Below, piece after piece: positions 4,990 through 17,817 of a DNA stretch of 64,000 nucleotides (position 1 is its first letter; every line of letters starts with the position of its first letter). Below the pieces are notes generated by a model. It made no database searches. It worked only from the letters and a program-made list of their open reading frames with translations, and was not told the DNA's origin. This stretch comes from Escherichia coli (GTDB lineage: Bacteria > Pseudomonadota > Gammaproteobacteria > Enterobacterales > Enterobacteriaceae). The position numbers and the translations under genes are program-made. Location: the NCBI RefSeq assembly GCF_041886205.1, contig NZ_CP169029.1; one strand, given 5' to 3'.

Positions 4990-6351
4990 GTGGAAAAAGA
5001 AAATATCACCCTCGATCCGCGTTCTTCATTTACTCCATCTTCGTCGGCAGATATTCCCGTGCCACCAGATGGATTAGTTCAACGCAGTACCCGAATTAAA
5101 CGCATTCAAACCACCGCCATGTTGTTATTATTTTTTGCGGCGGTAATCAATTATCTCGACCGCAGTTCGCTGTCGGTAGCAAATTTAACGATTCGTGAAG
5201 AATTGGGATTAAGTGCCACCGAAATCGGCGCTTTGCTCTCCGTGTTTTCACTCGCTTACGGCATTGCGCAACTTCCTTGCGGCCCACTATTGGATCGTAA
5301 AGGCCCACGCCTGATGCTGGGACTGGGGATGTTCTTCTGGTCACTGTTCCAGGCCATGTCTGGCATGGTGCACAGCTTTACGCAGTTCGTGTTGGTGCGT
5401 ATCGGTATGGGGATTGGTGAAGCGCCGATGAACCCATGCGGTGTAAAAGTCATTAACGACTGGTTCAACATCAAAGAGCGCGGACGCCCGATGGGCTTCT
5501 TCAACGCAGCTTCTACCATTGGCGTTGCCGTAAGCCCACCGATTCTGGCGGCGATGATGCTGGTGATGGGCTGGCGCGGGATGTTTATTACCATTGGTGT
5601 ACTGGGGATTTTTCTCGCCATCGGCTGGTATATGCTCTATCGCAACCGCGAGCACGTAGAACTGACTGCCGTTGAACAAGCTTATCTCAATGCAGGTAGC
5701 GTCAATGCCCGCCGAGATCCGCTCAGTTTTGCCGAATGGCGCAGCTTGTTCCGTAACCGCACAATGTGGGGAATGATGCTCGGATTCAGTGGCATCAACT
5801 ACACTGCGTGGCTGTATCTGGCCTGGCTTCCTGGTTACCTGCAAACAGCCTATAACCTGGATTTAAAAAGCACAGGGTTGATGGCGGCTATCCCTTTCCT
5901 GTTTGGGGCTGCCGGGATGCTGGTCAACGGTTACGTTACCGACTGGCTGGTCAAAGGGGGAATGGCTCCGATTAAAAGCCGTAAGATCTGCATTATTGCC
6001 GGGATGTTCTGTTCTGCCGCCTTTACGCTGATAGTACCACAAGCGACAACATCCATGACGGCGGTTCTGCTGATTGGCATGGCACTGTTCTGTATTCACT
6101 TTGCCGGAACATCCTGCTGGGGCTTGATCCACGTCGCAGTTGCTTCTCGCATGACTGCGTCGGTGGGCAGTATCCAGAACTTTGCCAGCTTCATCTGCGC
6201 CTCTTTCGCGCCGATCATTACTGGTTTTATTGTTGATACCACCCACTCATTCCGTCTGGCACTAATCATCTGCGGTTGCGTCACCGCAGCGGGGGCACTG
6301 GCGTACATCTTCCTGGTTCGTCAGCCGATCAACGACCCACGTAAAGATTAA
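4990..6351 (+). CDS. lgoT: MFS-family L-galactonate:H+ symporter
   Basis: 453 aa, GTG start, 12 predicted TM segments, MFS signature region GPLLDRKGPR. Confidence 0.82.
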   Translation: MEKENITLDPRSSFTPSSSADIPVPPDGLVQRSTRIKRIQTTAMLLLFFAAVINYLDRSSLSVANLTIREELGLSATEIGALLSVFSLAYGIAQLPCGPLLDRKGPRLMLGLGMFFWSLFQAMSGMVHSFTQFVLVRIGMGIGEAPMNPCGVKVINDWFNIKERGRPMGFFNAASTIGVAVSPPILAAMMLVMGWRGMFITIGVLGIFLAIGWYMLYRNREHVELTAVEQAYLNAGSVNARRDPLSFAEWRSLFRNRTMWGMMLGFSGINYTAWLYLAWLPGYLQTAYNLDLKSTGLMAAIPFLFGAAGMLVNGYVTDWLVKGGMAPIKSRKICIIAGMFCSAAFTLIVPQATTSMTAVLLIGMALFCIHFAGTSCWGLIHVAVASRMTASVGSIQNFASFICASFAPIITGFIVDTTHSFRLALIICGCVTAAGALAYIFLVRQPINDPRKD

Positions 6352-6399: not shown

Positions 6400-8064
6400 T
6401 TAAAACGTTTCCCAGTTCTCACCGCTATCTGCCACGGCCATTTTACGCGGCGCAGCTGGCATCACGGTTTTTACCACAGCCGATGTTTCACGCTGCTGTT
6501 GCTGCTGTTGCTGAATCCGGAACACTGCCACAGCTTCGGTCAGGCGACTGGCCTGCTCTTCCAGCGCGGCGGCGGCAGCGGCAGACTCTTCCACCAACGC
6601 GGCGTTCTGTTGAGTTACCCGGTCCATCTCAGCAACCGCTAAGCCAACCTGATCGATACCGCGGCTCTGCTCATCAGAAGCAGAAGCAATTTCGCCCATA
6701 ATGTCCGTCACGCGGGTCACGGCGCTGACAATCTCCGCCATTGTTTCCCCGGCGCTTTCGACCAGCGTAGAGCCAACATCCACTTTCCCCACCGAGTCTT
6801 CAATCAGGCTTTTAATTTCACGAGCCGCCTGGGCGCTGCGCTGGGCCAGATTACGCACTTCACCCGCGACCACCGCAAAACCGCGCCCTTGCTCACCCGC
6901 ACGCGCAGCCTCAACCGCCGCGTTCAAAGCCAGAATATTGGTCTGGAAGGCAATGCCGTCAATTACGCTGATAATATCGGCGATTTTCTGCGAACTGGTG
7001 GAAATATCGCGCATAGTCTGCACCACGTTATCTACCACTTTGCCGCCGCGTTGCGCCGTTTCAGAAGCACTTAACGCCAGGTGGCTGGCCTGGCGCGCAT
7101 TCTCGGCGTTCTGTTTCACCGTTGCGGTCAGTTGCTCCATGCTGGCTGCCGTCTCTTCCAGCGAAGCGGCCTGTTGCTCGGTGCGCGAAGAGAGATCGTT
7201 ATTGCCGGTGGCGATTTCGCTGGCACCGCTATAGATGGCATTGGCCCCGTTGCGCACATCACCGACGGTACGCATCAGCTCTCCCTGCATATGGCGCAAA
7301 CTCTCTGCCAGTTGCCCCATCTCATTAGAGCCATCCACCTCAATCGGTTTCACCAGATCGCCGCCTGCAATATGACGAATGCTGTCAATCAGGCGATTCA
7401 TTGGCGCTACCAGCGAGGCTTTAATACCGAACCAGACGGCGAAGATGACCGCCAGTACGACGATCATCACGCCCACCAGAATCCACATCGCCTGGCTGTA
7501 GGAGGCATTGTTATCGCTGACGGCGATATCATAGAGCCGATCGTTTTGCTCCATGTAAGCCACATACTGCTTCTCGAAACCGTCCTGATATCCCTGGGTC
7601 GGCTGATCAAAGAACTCGTTGATTTTGCCTGCACCTAACAGTTGGATCAGCTCCGCCAGCGCATTGTGATAAATATCGTAATTACGTTTGATCTCTGCCG
7701 CTGCGGCGGTGCTCTGACGCGGGTCACGCGGCAACGCTTCGTAATCCGCCCAGTTTTTTTCCGCCTGTTTCAGCGAAATACTGGCACTCTGCATCAGCTC
7801 AGCAACGGTTGAACCGCTACCAATATTATTCTGATCCATCATGTAGCGGATACCCGCGCGGTTGAGGGTGTTACGCGTCTGCAACAACGCGACCCAGCTG
7901 CCATTCAGCGTGGATTGCTGCTGGCGAATGGTTTGTAAAACAGTGAAATTTTCTTTGTCATTCTTTAAGGCATTAAAGAACAGACCGCCTGATGTCAGTT
8001 GTAAAAGGCCAAAAACGGCCAAAACCAGCAGTAAGCTGGTCACGATCTTGATACGTTTTAACAT
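6400..8064 (-). CDS. tsr: Methyl-accepting chemotaxis protein I (serine chemoreceptor)
   Basis: 554 aa; two TM segments, HAMP, highly conserved MCP signalling core ([37 protein letters not shown]), C-terminal NWETF pentapeptide; contains a 7-Gln tract near the C-terminus. Confidence 0.92.
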
Positions 8065-8095
8065 GGTTTCTCTTTCCTGTGGACCGACATCAGGA

Positions 8096-8122
8096 TTTTC
8101 GGCCTGAAATGAGAAAACTTTA
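8096..8122 (-). promoter_or_regulatory. Sigma-28 (FliA) class-3 flagellar promoter of tsr
   Basis: On the minus strand TAAAGTTT-N11-GCCGAAAA, one mismatch from consensus TAAAGTTT-N11-GCCGATAA, about 30 nt upstream of the tsr ATG. Confidence 0.7.
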
Positions 8123-8292
8123 TAGGTAGCGACTTGAAACTGGTTAATTTTACCTCACTTTTTTAATTTTTGTTCAAAAATACAATAACCACTTATTGAT
8201 ACATTTTCTTTTCTTATTTTTTTCACACGAATTGTATCTATTTTGAACGAAATATTTTATAGAGTGTGGAATTTTAAGAAAGGACATCTGAA

Positions 8293-8835
8293 ATGTTAAA
8301 CCGTGACTTCGATCATCTCTCAACGCTATTACATCTCTTTTTTGAACGTGAGGATATTTGCCAAAAGCTTAATATTATTGACCAAAACAATATCACCGGT
8401 TGGGAAGTGTGGTTCCAGGTAGAATTTGCTAATATGCTCTGCTCAACAGACCATGAATGGTGGCGTGAACAGGCACTTTCCTGTGATATGCGCAAAAAAC
8501 CTGAACGCCCGACACTACGCACAGATTTCTTACTACGTAAAAAAGGCTGGGCGCAAGATAGCTATATCGCGCTTGAAATAAAACAAAACAGTGACGCGAC
8601 CAGTTGTGTTAAAAATATGATCGCAGACTTAGAAAAAAGCGCCAAAATCAAACGTTCAGAACTCGAGTTACGCAGTTTCTGGACCCTGGGTATCACCCCT
8701 GTGATAGACAGAGAAAGGCTGGATTCTCTCATCGATTGCTATTTAGATGAGAAATTTTATCTTACTAAATCTCGTAAAAAACACGTTTTACTTAAAGAAA
8801 TAAATAATACACCATATTCCTATATTGTTATTTAA
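8293..8835 (+). CDS. Hypothetical 180-aa protein with PD-(D/E)XK-like motif, AT-rich
   Basis: 543-nt ORF in strongly AT-rich DNA where long ORFs are unlikely by chance; AAGGA upstream of ATG; motif D(TDFLL)...E-I-K (YIALEIKQ) spaced like a PD-(D/E)XK nuclease core; I do not recall a gene between tsr and btsT in K-12. Confidence 0.5.
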   Translation: MLNRDFDHLSTLLHLFFEREDICQKLNIIDQNNITGWEVWFQVEFANMLCSTDHEWWREQALSCDMRKKPERPTLRTDFLLRKKGWAQDSYIALEIKQNSDATSCVKNMIADLEKSAKIKRSELELRSFWTLGITPVIDRERLDSLIDCYLDEKFYLTKSRKKHVLLKEINNTPYSYIVI

Positions 8836-8943
8836 TATTTATAGCATGAATATAATTTTTATATGAGTTACACAACCGAGGGCTAAAAATCGCTTCGGTT
8901 GTGATCATCATCACATAAATAACCTTCATAAACCTTGCTCAAA

Positions 8944-8971
8944 ACCGCTCAACCGCAAAACTGACCGCTTA
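8944..8971 (+). promoter_or_regulatory. Putative BtsR (YehT) LytTR-type response-regulator binding site upstream of btsT
   Basis: Direct repeats ACCGCTCA ... ACCGCTTA separated by about 12 bp, matching the remembered ACC(G/T)CT(C/T)A repeat motif of the yjiY/btsT promoter. Confidence 0.5.
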
Positions 8972-9127
8972 CGTCCCTAAAATAACCACTCAGTTATTTA
9001 CCTTACTTTACGCGCGCGTAACTCTGGCAACATCACTGCAGGATAGCGGTCAATTTACCTCCTCAAACGCAACGCAAACCTAGAACGGCTTCGGCCAACG
9101 ATTAATCAATACATGCCAGGTTTTACT

Positions 9128-11278
9128 ATGGATACTAAAAAGATATTCAAGCACATACCCTGGGTGATTCTCGGAATCATCGGTGCATTCTGCCTCGCGG
9201 TAGTTGCATTACGTCGGGGGGAGCACGTCAGCGCCCTGTGGATCGTGGTCGCCTCTGTGTCGGTGTATCTGGTGGCGTATCGCTACTACAGTCTGTACAT
9301 CGCCCAGAAGGTGATGAAACTCGACCCCACGCGCGCGACGCCTGCGGTTATTAACAACGACGGTCTGAACTACGTTCCGACCAACCGTTACGTGTTGTTT
9401 GGTCACCACTTCGCCGCTATCGCCGGTGCTGGTCCGCTGGTCGGTCCGGTTCTCGCCGCACAGATGGGCTACCTGCCTGGCACGCTGTGGCTGCTGGCGG
9501 GGGTAGTACTGGCCGGTGCGGTTCAGGACTTTATGGTGCTGTTTATCTCCTCTCGCCGTAACGGCGCATCTCTCGGTGAGATGATCAAAGAAGAGATGGG
9601 GCCAGTTCCGGGGACTATCGCGCTGTTTGGCTGTTTCTTAATCATGATCATCATCCTCGCCGTTCTGGCGCTGATTGTGGTTAAAGCCCTGGCCGAAAGT
9701 CCGTGGGGTGTCTTCACCGTTTGCTCAACCGTACCGATTGCGCTGTTTATGGGTATCTACATGCGCTTTATCCGTCCGGGGCGTGTGGGTGAAGTCTCTG
9801 TCATTGGTATCGTGCTGCTGGTTGCCTCTATCTACTTCGGTGGCGTGATTGCTCACGATCCGTACTGGGGTCCGGCACTGACCTTTAAAGACACCACCAT
9901 TACCTTCGCGCTGATTGGCTATGCGTTTGTTTCCGCACTGCTGCCGGTGTGGCTGATCCTCGCACCGCGCGACTATCTGGCAACCTTCCTGAAAATCGGC
10001 GTTATCGTCGGCCTGGCGCTGGGTATCGTGGTGCTGAACCCGGAACTGAAAATGCCTGCGATGACCCAGTACATTGACGGTACTGGCCCGCTATGGAAAG
10101 GCGCTCTGTTCCCGTTCCTGTTCATCACCATCGCCTGTGGTGCGGTATCTGGCTTCCACGCGCTGATCTCTTCCGGTACGACGCCGAAACTGCTGGCTAA
10201 TGAAACCGACGCGCGTTTCATTGGCTACGGCGCAATGCTGATGGAGTCCTTCGTGGCGATTATGGCGCTGGTTGCTGCATCCATCATCGAACCGGGTCTT
10301 TACTTCGCGATGAATACCCCGCCTGCTGGCCTTGGCATCACCATGCCTAACCTGCATGAAATGGGTGGCGAGAACGCGCCGATCATCATGGCGCAGCTGA
10401 AAGACGTTACCGCACACGCGGCAGCGACAGTCAGCTCCTGGGGCTTCGTGATTTCGCCAGAGCAGATCCTGCAAACCGCGAAAGACATTGGTGAGCCTTC
10501 TGTCCTGAACCGTGCAGGTGGTGCGCCGACGCTGGCGGTAGGTATCGCTCACGTGTTCCACAAAGTGCTGCCGATGGCTGACATGGGCTTCTGGTATCAC
10601 TTCGGTATTCTGTTCGAAGCCCTGTTCATCCTGACCGCGCTGGATGCGGGTACTCGTTCTGGCCGCTTTATGCTGCAAGACCTGCTGGGTAACTTCATCC
10701 CGTTCCTGAAAAAAACCGACTCTCTGGTTGCCGGTATCATCGGTACTGCGGGCTGTGTGGGTCTGTGGGGCTACCTGCTGTATCAGGGCGTGGTCGATCC
10801 GCTGGGCGGCGTTAAGAGCCTGTGGCCGCTGTTCGGTATTTCCAACCAGATGCTGGCAGCCGTAGCGCTGGTACTGGGCACCGTTGTGCTGATTAAGATG
10901 AAGCGCACCCAATACATCTGGGTAACTGTTGTTCCGGCTGTATGGCTGCTTATCTGCACCACCTGGGCGCTGGGTCTGAAACTGTTCAGCACCAACCCGC
11001 AGATGGAAGGCTTCTTCTACATGGCAAGCCAGTACAAAGAGAAGATTGCTAACGGTACTGACCTGACGGCGCAGCAGATTGCCAACATGAACCACATCGT
11101 TGTGAACAACTACACCAACGCGGGCCTGAGTATTCTGTTCCTGATTGTGGTGTACAGCATCATCTTCTACGGTTTCAAAACCTGGCTTGCGGTGCGTAAC
11201 AGCGACAAACGTACTGACAAAGAAACACCGTACGTTCCAATCCCGGAAGGCGGCGTGAAGATCTCTTCGCACCACTAA
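9128..11278 (+). CDS. btsT: Pyruvate/H+ symporter, CstA-family transporter
   Basis: 716 aa from ATG at 9128 (MDTKKIFKHIPWVILG); many TM helices; CstA family architecture; synteny with yjiX-yjiA. Confidence 0.88.
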   Translation: MDTKKIFKHIPWVILGIIGAFCLAVVALRRGEHVSALWIVVASVSVYLVAYRYYSLYIAQKVMKLDPTRATPAVINNDGLNYVPTNRYVLFGHHFAAIAGAGPLVGPVLAAQMGYLPGTLWLLAGVVLAGAVQDFMVLFISSRRNGASLGEMIKEEMGPVPGTIALFGCFLIMIIILAVLALIVVKALAESPWGVFTVCSTVPIALFMGIYMRFIRPGRVGEVSVIGIVLLVASIYFGGVIAHDPYWGPALTFKDTTITFALIGYAFVSALLPVWLILAPRDYLATFLKIGVIVGLALGIVVLNPELKMPAMTQYIDGTGPLWKGALFPFLFITIACGAVSGFHALISSGTTPKLLANETDARFIGYGAMLMESFVAIMALVAASIIEPGLYFAMNTPPAGLGITMPNLHEMGGENAPIIMAQLKDVTAHAAATVSSWGFVISPEQILQTAKDIGEPSVLNRAGGAPTLAVGIAHVFHKVLPMADMGFWYHFGILFEALFILTALDAGTRSGRFMLQDLLGNFIPFLKKTDSLVAGIIGTAGCVGLWGYLLYQGVVDPLGGVKSLWPLFGISNQMLAAVALVLGTVVLIKMKRTQYIWVTVVPAVWLLICTTWALGLKLFSTNPQMEGFFYMASQYKEKIANGTDLTAQQIANMNHIVVNNYTNAGLSILFLIVVYSIIFYGFKTWLAVRNSDKRTDKETPYVPIPEGGVKISSHH

Positions 11279-12832: not shown

Positions 12833-14683
12833 ATGGCAACAATAATCCCAACAATCAGTAGCTGCAACGATAAAATTACTGCCGGAGAGAAAAGGCTGGC
12901 AAGAATTCTGGAAAGAGGACTAGGCGAAGAGTGCTGCTGTTGGTATGACATTCCCACGGGTGATAAGCATCTTCACCCAGATTTTATGATACTTTCGCCA
13001 GAAAAAGGCATTATTTTTCTCGAGGTAAAAGATTGGTTTATTACAAAAATAAAAAAAGCCAACAAGTCTAATGTGTGGTATGAGACACAAAATGGCATTC
13101 AATCTTTAAAGAATCCGATAGAACAAGTTAGGCGATATGCTTTCGAAGCTGTAAACCAGTTAAAAAAAGACCCCCTATTGCGCCAACAGGATGATCGTTA
13201 CAATGGCAATCTTCTTTTCCCCTATGGATATGGCGTCTACTTTAGTAATATTACACGAGAAGCATTAAATAATAAATTTACTCAAGAAGAGCTGCTCGGG
13301 ATCTTCCCATCAGATCTCATCATCTGCAAAGACGAACTAAATGAATTCATGTCAAAAGAGGATGTTTCATCTAAAATACATTCGTTAATTAAATATGACT
13401 TCAAATGTCATGCTACACAAGAACAGTTGAACAGGATTAGATGGCACTTATACCCCGATGTCAGAATAGAAAGGGAAAAGAGAAGTAAAAACCGTGATGA
13501 ATTGAGTGTCGATGCACCAACCATCATTTCTATCCTGGATACTCAACAGGAACAACTTGCCAGGAGTATGAGAGATGGCCACCGAATCATTCATGGTGTT
13601 GCAGGTTCAGGGAAGACATTGATCCTCTATCATCGCTGTCAGGAATTAGCGAAAAAAAATGACAGCGAAAAGCCAATACTTGTCATTTGCTACAATATTA
13701 CTTTAGCCAAAAAACTTCGGTCGATGTTCATCAATCATCCCTTTGCAGAGAAAATAAAGGTTAAAAATTTTCATGCATGGTGTTTCCAACAAATTAAAGA
13801 AAACAAGATCACCATTCCAGAAGGGGATAATATTTTTGAAAATATGGAGCAAGCGTTGACTGATGGTTTCAACACAGGAAAAATAAAACCAGAACAATAC
13901 AGCGCTGTATTAATTGATGAAGGACATGATTTTAAGCCCGAATGGTTAAAAATCCTTGCAAAAATGACTGACTCTCAGGACGAGAATTTGCTATTCCTTT
14001 ATGATGATGCTCAGTCAATTTACCAAAAAAAGAAAGCATTAGACTTTACACTGTCCAGCGTAGATATTAAAGCGACAGGGCGCACAACTATTCTTAATAT
14101 AAATTATAGAAACACACAGCAAATCCTACACTTTGCCAGTTGCATTGCATTTAATTATCTTAATAGCCATATCGATAGTTCTTTAACCTATCATAAACCT
14201 GCTGCGGGAGGAATGAATGGCGATTATCCCAACCTTGAACATTTCGACACACAGGACGAAGAAATAGCAAGAGCAGTCAAATGGATTACAGAGCAAAATG
14301 AACAAGGGATTCCGTGGTCTGAAATTGCTATACTAAGTCCATCAACTCATACCCTTTCTAACTCTCTAAGTTCTGTACTTGAATCGAAAAACATCCCCTT
14401 TAATCTTATTGTAAGCTCTGCAGATAAAAAATCCTGGACGCCAGAACAAGAGCGTGTTTCTGTGATGCCATTACCCAGCAGCAAAGGGCTTGAGTTTCAC
14501 TCAGTTGTCATTATTGACGCAGCGAGAACACGGGATAATAGCGATGATTTGAGTGAGGATATAAAGAGACTCTATGTAGGTTTTACCCGAGCACGTTGCA
14601 ATCTCTTGGTAACCTTGCACGGTGAAGGTGCGTTAAATGAGCATCTACTAAAAACCTATGAGCAAAGCCCACAATATATGTAA
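12833..14683 (+). CDS. NERD-domain nuclease fused to SF1 (UvrD-like) helicase; Nhi-like candidate anti-phage protein
   Basis: 616 aa; N-terminal NERD-like region with PD...(E)VK core (HPDFMIL ... IIFLEVKDW); Walker A GVAGSGKT, Walker B VLIDEGHDF, SF1 motif V/VI-like LPSSKGLEFHSVVII and LYVGFTRARCNLLV; AT-rich; occupies the slot that holds mrr-hsdRMS in K-12. Confidence 0.75.
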   Translation: MATIIPTISSCNDKITAGEKRLARILERGLGEECCCWYDIPTGDKHLHPDFMILSPEKGIIFLEVKDWFITKIKKANKSNVWYETQNGIQSLKNPIEQVRRYAFEAVNQLKKDPLLRQQDDRYNGNLLFPYGYGVYFSNITREALNNKFTQEELLGIFPSDLIICKDELNEFMSKEDVSSKIHSLIKYDFKCHATQEQLNRIRWHLYPDVRIEREKRSKNRDELSVDAPTIISILDTQQEQLARSMRDGHRIIHGVAGSGKTLILYHRCQELAKKNDSEKPILVICYNITLAKKLRSMFINHPFAEKIKVKNFHAWCFQQIKENKITIPEGDNIFENMEQALTDGFNTGKIKPEQYSAVLIDEGHDFKPEWLKILAKMTDSQDENLLFLYDDAQSIYQKKKALDFTLSSVDIKATGRTTILNINYRNTQQILHFASCIAFNYLNSHIDSSLTYHKPAAGGMNGDYPNLEHFDTQDEEIARAVKWITEQNEQGIPWSEIAILSPSTHTLSNSLSSVLESKNIPFNLIVSSADKKSWTPEQERVSVMPLPSSKGLEFHSVVIIDAARTRDNSDDLSEDIKRLYVGFTRARCNLLVTLHGEGALNEHLLKTYEQSPQYM

Positions 14684-15121: not shown

Positions 15122-15299
15122 TCATGAAGGCTGGATACACTTTGTTATCCGGCCATTGTGAATTAACGTTAATTTTTCTTCCAAATCTTTCCAGTAACGC
15201 TTTTATTATTTTCTATTTTTAGCTGGACTTTCCCTGTATTTACTGATGATATGTCCAGGTATTTAGCGCGGTGCGGATGTGCGCCAACACACCCGCACC

Positions 15300-15376
15300 A
15301 CTCATCACAATCACTATTTTCAAGGAATAGCAGTTATGACTGACACGCATTTTATTGCACAACCGTTCGAAGCAGA
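15300..15376 (-). ncRNA. symR: Expected position of SymR antisense sRNA (type I antitoxin) overlapping the symE RBS and start
   Basis: Placement inferred from the known symE/symR arrangement; boundaries not determinable from sequence alone. Confidence 0.35.
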
Positions 15377-15677
15377 AGTCTCCCCGGCAAATAACCGTCA
15401 ATTAACCGTGAGTTATGCGAGCCGCTACCCGGATTACAGCCGTATTCCCGCCATCACCCTGAAAGGTCAGTGGCTGGAAGCCGCCGGTTTTGCCACCGGC
15501 ACGGCGGTAGATGTCAAAGTAATGGAAGGCTGTATTGTCCTCACCGCCCAACAACCCGCCGCCGAAGAGAGCGAACTGATGCAGTCGCTGCGCCAGGTGT
15601 GCAAACTGTCGGCGCGTAAACAAAAGCAGGTGCAGGATTTTATTGGGGTGATTGCCGGTAAACAGAAAGTCGCCTGA
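15336..15677 (+). CDS. symE: SOS-induced toxin SymE (AbrB/MazE-like fold endoribonuclease)
   Basis: 113 aa from ATG 15336 with AAGGAA SD; sequence [25 protein letters not shown] ... matches remembered SymE (YjiW). Confidence 0.8.
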
Positions 15678-15723: not shown

Positions 15724-17817
15724 TTATACCAACGCGCTCTCCATCTGTTTTTCAAATGCCTGACGAATTAATCCCATAATGTAAGGAAGTTGTGCGAGGT
15801 CGCTGAAACCAATTTCCACATCACCATTACCCCAGCGCCCAATATTTGTCACATCTTTGGCAATACCTTTCGGATCGACCAGTTCATGAAACTGCATATT
15901 AAGCGACAATCGCAGTCGGCTTTTTTGCGGCACAACATCAACAAAATTCGTTTCAGCTTTAAACGCAATATACAGCTTTAAAACTTCCTGCGTGATCCCT
16001 GCGTCCAGGCGCATAACTTCATCGCGAAGATGATCGAATAACACCCGGCTATGCGAACCATCAGCAAGAAAAGGATAATCACTCAGGCTGTAACTGGTTT
16101 TGTTTTCTGGCTGCCCCCGATAAACAGCTAAAACCTCTTCAGAAAGAGAAGGCGCTTGCCAGACCTGAACCGCGAGATCGGCCAGACGATCGGCTCGGGC
16201 GTGAATGGCGGCTTCATCCCATTTTTCGCACTGTCCAAGACCGATATTCAAATAAAGCGGGCTATGTTTAAAGCCATCTTCAATATCGCGTTTTTCCGCG
16301 AAAGGTCTGTCACTGTAGCGGGAGTTATAGCGCGTTAAAGTGAGATTCCCCAACGTATGTAACAGTTCTTTATGCACACGCTGCCAGTCGCTTCCCAGCT
16401 CTTCACGCCATTTAGCCGACAGATTTTCGTTCTGCGGCATAATGTGCTCAATCGTAAACTCTTCCACGCGCTCTCTGCGTTTATCGTTTTCCAGTCGTCG
16501 TAACCAGTAGCTGCGGCTGCGGAAGTTATAGAGATCGCGCACTTTTAATTCCCGTTTAAATTCATCATCGTTGGGGAAACGACGATATGAAGGCAGGTTC
16601 ATAAAATGTACCTGAATACTTTCCAGATATTTTTCTTTATTAATGACCTTATAAAAAGTGGCAAACGTCTTGTTAAGAGAATTCGTCGGAATCGCACATA
16701 CTGCACGGCGGAAAACATAAGATTCAATTAAACGAATTATGCTCAGGAAATCTTCGTGAGACAAATCGTCATTTTTATAGTCATGATAAAGCGCCAGTAA
16801 GAAAGGATACGCCACATCAACCTTTAACTCGCGCAAATCCTGAAAAGCCGTAGCAAGCGATTTGTCACTTTCTTTTCCCAATGCCATTGCACAGTAATAC
16901 TCCGCGTAGATATGAATATCTTCAACCAGCCGATCTACGCCTTTTTCAGCAACACTCTGGCTGCGGGCATGGAGTTTAAATGCCTCATAGACTTCATCTG
17001 TCCGAGGGATCTCCCCCGTTTTTACCGTCAGATAATGACGCATAAAACTGTCAAAATATTCGCTGTAACCTTGCTGACCAAAGGCGACTTCCATTGGACG
17101 CCAGTGATCTTCATACAACCGGGTTTGATGCTCTGGTTCGAGACCCATCAGAATAAAATTGCGCACCAGATCGGCCTGACTTAACGCCTTACCGGTGGAG
17201 TTCATACTTTCAAAAATCAGTTGCGGATTATCCTGACCACGATTAAGCGCCACATCGACAATTAATAACTTTGCTAACCCTCGACATAAGGGAATCAAGT
17301 CATCCCCGAGTTTGGCAATTTGCTCATCAAAGAAAGTAAAGTTTTCCATTATTCGATGGGAATAGTTTTCTGGCATTGGTCTTTGTTTTATTAACGCCAG
17401 CAAACTGTCTTTATCAGTCTCGGTCAGCAGTAATTTAAAACCTTTCTCGCCGGACTCATAAGGATTGAGCAAATAATAATTACGCAATTTCATTGCCGAA
17501 AAGCCATCAAAAACTTCGTCTTCGCCAAGATGGCGCGATAAAGCCTCAATCAGCAACATTGCGGTCGTCAGCCGCTGCTGACCATCAATGACCAGCAACG
17601 GAGAAATACCAGAAACCTGATACAACCCCTGCTCAATATAAACAACCGAACCGATAAAATGCGCTGATATATCGTCACGCTTTCCGGCACGAATGATGTC
17701 GTCCCAAAGTTGCCGACATTGTTGCCCGGTCCATGAATAGGTGCGTTGATAAATGGGAATAACAAACTGCTGCGAACGTTTTAAAAAATCGAGTAGGCGG
17801 GCTTCTGTAGCTTTCAT
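15724..17817 (-). CDS. Type IV modification-dependent restriction endonuclease, GmrSD family (DUF262 + DUF1524)
   Basis: 697 aa; N-terminal DUF262/ParB-like NTPase motifs (IPIYQRTYSW, IDGQQRLTT); C-terminal DUF1524 His-Me finger motifs (EHIMPQ, HTLGNLTLT); sits where mcrBC lies in K-12. Confidence 0.75.
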   Translation of the reverse strand: MKATEARLLDFLKRSQQFVIPIYQRTYSWTGQQCRQLWDDIIRAGKRDDISAHFIGSVVYIEQGLYQVSGISPLLVIDGQQRLTTAMLLIEALSRHLGEDEVFDGFSAMKLRNYYLLNPYESGEKGFKLLLTETDKDSLLALIKQRPMPENYSHRIMENFTFFDEQIAKLGDDLIPLCRGLAKLLIVDVALNRGQDNPQLIFESMNSTGKALSQADLVRNFILMGLEPEHQTRLYEDHWRPMEVAFGQQGYSEYFDSFMRHYLTVKTGEIPRTDEVYEAFKLHARSQSVAEKGVDRLVEDIHIYAEYYCAMALGKESDKSLATAFQDLRELKVDVAYPFLLALYHDYKNDDLSHEDFLSIIRLIESYVFRRAVCAIPTNSLNKTFATFYKVINKEKYLESIQVHFMNLPSYRRFPNDDEFKRELKVRDLYNFRSRSYWLRRLENDKRRERVEEFTIEHIMPQNENLSAKWREELGSDWQRVHKELLHTLGNLTLTRYNSRYSDRPFAEKRDIEDGFKHSPLYLNIGLGQCEKWDEAAIHARADRLADLAVQVWQAPSLSEEVLAVYRGQPENKTSYSLSDYPFLADGSHSRVLFDHLRDEVMRLDAGITQEVLKLYIAFKAETNFVDVVPQKSRLRLSLNMQFHELVDPKGIAKDVTNIGRWGNGDVEIGFSDLAQLPYIMGLIRQAFEKQMESALV

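Follow-up and report, generated by a model that had tools for sequence, protein, structure and literature searches.

A tri-allelic slot between tsr and btsT in Escherichia coli holds, as one allele, the gene for a small solitary protein with a predicted PD-(D/E)XK nuclease fold

The gap between the serine chemoreceptor gene tsr and the pyruvate/H+ symporter gene btsT of Escherichia coli is a tri-allelic slot, which contains a short filler, the hpa (4-hydroxyphenylacetate) operon, or the gene for a predicted nuclease. In the window, i.e., the whole 64,000-nt stretch of contig NZ_CP169029.1 that was analyzed, the gene order is lgoT (4990–6351, + strand), tsr (6400–8064, − strand), a gap of 1063 bp, btsT (9128–11278, + strand), yjiX, and yjiA, and the gap carries the third of these alleles, with an ORF for a 180-amino-acid protein on the + strand (8293–8835; 543 nt including the stop codon, ATG start). 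This ORF is a real gene under purifying selection, with dN/dS values of 0.03–0.08. The explanation that we prefer, and consider moderately probable, is that it encodes a small, solitary, Mg-dependent DNA endonuclease of the PD-(D/E)XK type, which is an old resident of the slot and acts in a restriction-like manner on foreign or modified DNA.

The GC content of the region 8000–9050 was 31–44%, whereas that of the flanking genes was 51–61%; the ORF itself has a GC content of 38.7%, compared with approximately 55% for tsr, btsT, and yjiA. Given the base composition of the segment, the probability of 180 stop-free codons arising by chance was 1.9e-6, and in 5000 shuffles the longest run without a stop was 148 codons, against 185 in the actual sequence, which excludes chance and indicates that the ORF is real. 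The dN/dS ratio was 0.083 between the alleles of the window and of O157:H7 and 0.031 between the homologs of two Citrobacter species; in comparisons between genera dS was saturated, and dN amounted to only 0.12–0.22. A Shine–Dalgarno-like AAGGA was recognized in the sequence at 8280–8284 (+ strand), 8 nt upstream of the ATG, and in an alignment of the orthologous loci an A/G-rich block, (A)AGGA, was kept at the matching position. Consensus scans of the region detected neither a promoter on the + strand nor a canonical intrinsic terminator, and an Rfam scan yielded a noise match only. RefSeq already annotates the product as a "hypothetical protein" (WP_000934391.1, in O157:H7 EDL933, with locus tag EDL933_RS28245, and elsewhere), and "hypothetical" is its label in all the sources consulted. 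Searches of the literature with O157 locus tags and RefSeq and UniProt accessions, and of a paper on E. coli defense hotspots, found no mention of the gene or of the tsr–btsT slot. An earlier note on this DNA, written from the sequence alone, had pointed to a 543-nt ORF surviving in AT-rich DNA, to the SD-like AAGGA in front of it, and to the lack of such a gene at this site in K-12, and all three points were borne out, the last by direct comparison with K-12.

The window aligned to K-12 with 97–99% identity at 7700–8123 and 8945–9500. Between these stretches lies a low-GC cassette of 821 bp (8124–8944) that is absent from K-12, in which an unrelated sequence of 136 bp takes its place; a local alignment of this filler with the cassette produced only a trivial match of 21 nt. 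In a census of 5426 complete E. coli genomes, the K-12-type filler was present in 2753, the hpa operon in 2228, and the cassette in 362–365, where it was single-copy, chromosomal, and always located between tsr and btsT. The carriers of the cassette were mostly O157:H7 strains; the others were scattered isolates from the environment, animals, and humans. On the left, the three alleles part from one another at a single shared point, 1–2 bases from the −35 element of the tsr promoter, and the boundaries of the slot coincide with the sigma-28 promoter of tsr and the CRP/BtsR sites of btsT. Neither terminal repeats nor a target duplication were detected around 8124–8944, where only short chance repeats occur; with no flanking repeats, and with one copy at one site in 365 genomes, the cassette lacks the hallmarks of a mobile insertion. 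The earlier note had described a small, horizontally acquired insertion and had asked for its boundaries against K-12 and other E. coli. A foreign origin is plausible and the boundaries could be placed at 8124–8944, but what they enclose is a replacement of 136 bp by 821 bp, without repeats or duplication and as one of three alleles, rather than a clean insertion. In one cassette-bearing genome, E. coli ZF8-1 (NZ_CP178597.1, 4190772–4192371), an IS1A element lies inside the 821-bp segment, which is evidence that disruption is one route to loss of the gene. Strains with the hpa allele have a further sequence of approximately 130 bp between the control region of btsT and its start codon (STEC719; L064, 15787–15916). 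This extra sequence contains GTGAATCCCCGGGAGCTTACAACAGTAAGTGACAGGGGTGAACGA, a candidate ERIC/IRU repeat element.

On the left of the slot, the sigma-28-type promoter of tsr was present where it had been proposed (8096–8122, − strand), with TAAAGTTT at 8122–8115 and GCCGAAAA at 8103–8096 separated by 11 nt, and its core blocks were invariant across genera in the alignment. The length of Tsr itself varied by strain (551 amino acids in K-12, 554 in the window and O157, and 557 in EC6622), and Tsr of the window carries seven consecutive glutamines close to its C-terminal end, a likely site of this variation. On the right, btsT is controlled by BtsS/BtsR, and CRP is also needed (PMC7730263). The btsT promoter contains boxes of the form ACC(G/A)CT(C/T)A on the + strand. 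The BtsR-like repeats proposed for 8944–8971 were found as two boxes (ACCGCTCA, 8944–8951; ACCGCTTA, 8964–8971), and a third (ACCACTCA, 8985–8992), 21 bp past the second repeat, is kept in Escherichia, Citrobacter, Phytobacter, and another enterobacterium; from the YehT/BtsR motif, we presume that all three are BtsR sites. These boxes make up the conserved flank to the right of the cassette. Further to the left, a palindrome of the TGTGA-N6-TCACA type (TGTGATCATCATCACA, 8900–8915), a candidate CRP site by its consensus, is kept in the three E. coli alleles and in all the genera aligned, and it belongs to the control region of btsT rather than to the function of the cassette itself. The bracketing of the ORF by the tsr promoter and the BtsR-like repeats stands, but the control region of btsT reaches further left than had been supposed, to 8900–8915. 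Because the palindrome and the boxes are kept in all three alleles, the cassette ends, in functional terms, at about 8898, and none of the E. coli alleles disrupts the control region of btsT.

A stable hairpin on the + strand (8871–8903; 11-bp stem, −17 kcal/mol, z = −4.6) starts 36 nt past the stop codon of the ORF, immediately before the palindrome. Hairpins of unrelated sequence occur at the same place in E. coli, two Citrobacter species, Phytobacter, and another enterobacterium (z = −2.1 to −4.6). Although the hairpin has no T-run, the retention of its position across the loci fits a conserved role as terminator or insulator for the ORF transcript, and it is probably the terminator or a 3′ stabilizer of the ORF, insulating it from the btsT promoter.

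The tsr–ORF–btsT arrangement is not confined to E. coli. It is shared by E. marmotae/ruysiae, by four Citrobacter genomes (C. portucalensis, C. braakii, and two others), and by Phytobacter diazotrophicus and another enterobacterium, and in Franconibacter pulveris a homolog adjoins tsr in the other orientation. Between E. coli and C. portucalensis, the ORF had an identity of 0.49 at third codon positions, compared with 0.535 in tsr and 0.70 in btsT; the ORF is therefore about as diverged as tsr, which favors long residence over recent acquisition. Since the same slot is occupied in other Escherichia, Citrobacter, and Phytobacter, presence of the gene is probably the older state, and it was probably ancestral at the slot, with later loss or replacement in the majority of E. 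coli, including the K-12 lineage. An ultimately foreign origin is plausible, considering that the GC content of the gene was below that of its flanks in 31 of 32 species, by a mean of 9.5 points. Outside the slot, homologs were found in an island with an integrase and a type I restriction–modification system in Serratia fonticola, near hipBA in Aeromonas, beside a CI/LexA-like repressor in Xenorhabdus, and among transporters and a fimbrial gene on a metagenomic enterobacterial contig. A second case of a slot that is fixed at the level of a genus is seen in five Acinetobacter species, where the homolog follows, on the same strand and at a distance of approximately 90–150 bp, a gene for an aconitase-like protein of approximately 875 amino acids. 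In related loci, genes for methylisocitrate-lyase-like and citrate-synthase-like proteins occur further upstream, in a context resembling a prp operon. Clustering of the neighbors at 49 loci revealed no recurring neighbor family, and no methyltransferase, antitoxin, transposase, or NTPase recurred next to the homologs. Overall, the family has the character of an accessory gene passed on by horizontal exchange.

In enteric bacteria, the gene lies a few kilobases from the immigration control region, which is filled differently in the window. After yjiA, where K-12 has mrr-hsdRMS-mcrBC, the window encodes a 616-amino-acid protein with NERD and a UvrD-type helicase (12833–14683, + strand; PADLOC C3a187, E = 2.7e-140) and a 696-amino-acid DUF262/GmrSD-like protein (15724–17817, − strand; PADLOC Orf5, E = 1.9e-223, with further matches to HEC-06, mREase_IV, and SspE-like models). 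The 132-amino-acid ORF between these two genes (15279–15677) had no match. A 317-amino-acid homolog of the Rpn-family recombination-promoting nucleases, also named "ISNCY transposase," follows at 19910–20866 (− strand; TIGR01784, 165.8 bits against a cutoff of 52.1) and is another nuclease of the PD-(D/E)XK type in the neighborhood of the ORF. The ORF product proved unrelated to the NERD domain of the 616-amino-acid helicase.

A word-indexed search identified 40 close homologs of the ORF product, and an exhaustive search (E ≤ 1e-3) approximately 187 clusters at 50% identity. Nearly all the family members are single-domain proteins of 170–200 amino acids that match the query over its full length; their hosts are Gammaproteobacteria, Betaproteobacteria, and Campylobacterota, and all are labeled hypothetical. 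The ORF product had no significant match in NCBIfam, PHROGs, PADLOC, or Pfam, and nothing significant emerged among the PDB sequences, either with the single protein or with profiles of 23 and 96 sequences. The sole recurring Pfam match was Tn7_TnsA-like_N (PF08722), which touched residues 56–112 at a sub-threshold E value of 0.054 and was detected at E ≤ 0.1 in seven of 23 family members; PDDEXK_9 matched one member (E = 0.013), and no Pfam match reached E ≤ 0.001. The defense HMMs of PADLOC-DB 2.0 produced only noise (oMTase, E = 0.0014, over a non-core stretch; PDC-S58, E = 0.009), and tblastn of the plasmid and phage collections with the ORF product yielded no match. Two large representatives among the matches, P0120 and P0161, proved to be repetitive junk. 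One metagenomic member, P0061 (295 amino acids), has approximately 100 residues before the nuclease domain, which, as we read the sequence, resemble a fragment of an IS200/REP-associated tyrosine transposase; this arrangement may reflect either a fusion made by the gene call or a true juxtaposition.

The structure of the ORF product was predicted with AlphaFold2 from an alignment of 23 sequences (pLDDT, 86.5; pTM, 0.84). In the model, two N-terminal helices are followed by a helix (residues 38–50), three strands (55–64, 74–82, and 90–98), a helix (102–116), and a further strand (125–136), and the C-terminal part is small, with helical and beta elements. As modeled, this order of elements is that of the PD-(D/E)XK core, alpha-beta-beta-beta-alpha-beta. 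Among 96–101 diverse members of the family, E44 was invariant, D112 was invariant or nearly so, and E38, W40, Q42, E59, D78, E95, K97, K115, and G133 were at least 90% conserved. E38 and E44 fall on the first core helix of the model, D78 on strand 2, E95-x-K97 on strand 3, and D112 and K115 on the helix after strand 3 (102–116), and several family members read literally P-D-F at the position of D78. An acidic residue on helix 1, the D of strand 2, and the E-x-K of strand 3 make up, in the predicted structure, the canonical PD-(D/E)XK arrangement. The D...E-x-K motif that had been noticed in the translation (TDFLL ... YIALEIKQ) thus corresponds to D78, E95, and K97, a near-invariant core in a family with this predicted fold. 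The family is best filed as an uncharacterized one inside the well-known PD-(D/E)XK superfamily.

A mechanism can be proposed on this basis. E44, together with E38, D78, and E95-x-K97, would bind one or two Mg2+ ions and activate a water molecule for the cleavage of a phosphodiester bond, most probably in DNA, and the basic residues R82-K83-K84, K115, and R127 would contact the backbone. The ORF would be transcribed alone from the AT-rich 170 bp upstream of it, and its transcript would end at the hairpin before the CRP site of btsT, making it an insulated transcription unit of a single gene, flanked by the promoters of tsr and btsT. Our best guess at its role is that of a solitary, self-sparing, restriction-like nuclease directed against foreign or modified DNA. 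The reality of the gene, its purifying selection, the predicted fold, the conserved motif, the alleles, and the synteny are shown, and we infer from them nuclease activity, DNA as the substrate, and, above all, the defense role. With no partner recurring across the 49 loci, neither a classical type II enzyme nor a TnsA relic nor a toxin–antitoxin pair is likely. The patchy spread, the low GC content, a fold close to those of restriction enzymes, and the nearby immigration control region make a defense role the single most likely one. The defense step is nevertheless weak, because the product has no PADLOC match and no reading domain, many of the contexts of the family are not those of defense, and synteny has been retained for a long time. 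Still more tentatively, the whole family may represent a minimal, methyltransferase-less, single-gene immune nuclease, a new type of stand-alone restriction that O157:H7 and scattered Proteobacteria would carry, that the defense catalogues miss, and that could be triggered, for example, by a modification or a structure.

The main rival to a restriction-like endonuclease, unlikely on balance but with a real chance of being right, is a housekeeping-type, structure-specific nuclease of repair or recombination, comparable to Hjc, RecU, MutH, or Vsr, whose substrates would be branched, nicked, or mismatched DNA and which would play no part in defense. It would account for a gene that is solitary, without a partner, and exclusively chromosomal, that has been retained in synteny for a long time under strong purifying selection, and that many hosts have among ordinary genes; the small size of the product is typical of resolvases, and Hjc, NucS, VRR-NUC, and XPB-Bax1 are among its fold-level matches. 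The fold-level matches also include cap-snatching endonucleases, the tRNA-splicing endonuclease subunit Sen2, RAP domains, and Schlafen proteins, and these agree with a second, minor rival, that the product is an RNase of the PD-(D/E)XK fold, such as an effector of stress or abortive infection that acts on tRNA or mRNA. A solitary RNase would need no methyltransferase for self-protection if it were kept silent, and the AT-rich promoter region of the ORF may be repressed by H-NS; we nonetheless regard an RNase as improbable. Equally minor, and hardly probable, is a selfish nuclease, of the free-standing homing type or an addiction toxin, that would maintain itself in the slot by cutting its empty or alternative alleles. 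Homing endonucleases of the PD-(D/E)XK type exist, and a single gene of low GC content and patchy presence between conserved genes, with an identical left breakpoint in three alleles, is consistent with such an element. However, the gene is single-copy, occupies different slots in other taxa without a shared flanking target, has no antitoxin-like neighbor, and was not found among the phages and plasmids searched, where such genes thrive, and its divergence tracks that of tsr, which suggests vertical descent over homing. That the product is a lone TnsA-type endonuclease, the relic of a decayed Tn7-like transposon, is very improbable and already largely refuted: Tn7_TnsA-like_N is the sole Pfam family touched and UniProt automatically labels a few family members as TnsA-like, but these matches are sub-threshold, the C-terminal domain of TnsA is lacking (180 vs. 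approximately 270 amino acids), no tnsB/tnsC-like or transposase neighbor recurs, the cassette has no terminal repeats, and a family that is uniformly approximately 180 amino acids long and under purifying selection is not decaying. Finally, a chance reading frame in AT-rich intergenic DNA, with which the failure of the scans to find a canonical promoter or terminator would agree, is already refuted by the conservation pattern, as homologs with 25–40% identity in Gammaproteobacteria, Betaproteobacteria, and Campylobacterota keep the length and the motifs, the fold prediction is confident, and both the chance probability of approximately 2e-6 and the dN/dS values argue against it.

If the product is indeed a self-sparing, restriction-like nuclease, it would be a very small, single-gene addition to the defense repertoire, and also a functional lineage marker; if it is not restriction-like, it is one more orphan PD-(D/E)XK family. 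A "hypothetical" protein of every O157:H7 genome now has a predicted fold and a predicted active site (E44, D78, E95, and K97).

Among known systems, the type II restriction endonucleases of the BamHI/BglII/OkrAI/BstYI and SwaI/BglI/EcoRV groups are alike at the level of the fold, with no detectable similarity in sequence (7–12% identity), but a type II restriction–modification system has its cognate methyltransferase in the adjacent position, whereas the ORF family is without one at approximately 50 loci, and in E. coli, Citrobacter, and E. marmotae/ruysiae the neighbors of the ORF are tsr and btsT instead. The nuclease domain of CinB, the cytoplasmic-incompatibility factor of Wolbachia, is likewise similar in fold only (9% identity); CinB is a two-domain toxin of 659–732 amino acids paired with CinA, whereas the ORF product is a single domain of 180 amino acids with no partner. 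The N-terminal domain of TnsA (PF08722) shows a weak likeness over the three core strands that bear the D and the E-x-K (residues 56–112), but the TnsA of Tn7-like elements also has a C-terminal domain and is accompanied by tnsB/tnsC and transposon ends, none of which occur at the ORF locus. The solitary type IV enzymes of the E. coli immigration control region (Mrr, McrA, and the GmrSD-like proteins) have an extra domain that reads DNA or its modification, or an NTPase, and match PADLOC or Pfam models; in the ORF product no extra domain is recognized, the PADLOC mREase_IV models yield no match, and the core domain stands by itself apart from short helical extensions. Like the ORF, these type IV systems stand alone, have no methyltransferase, vary among strains, and are low in GC content.
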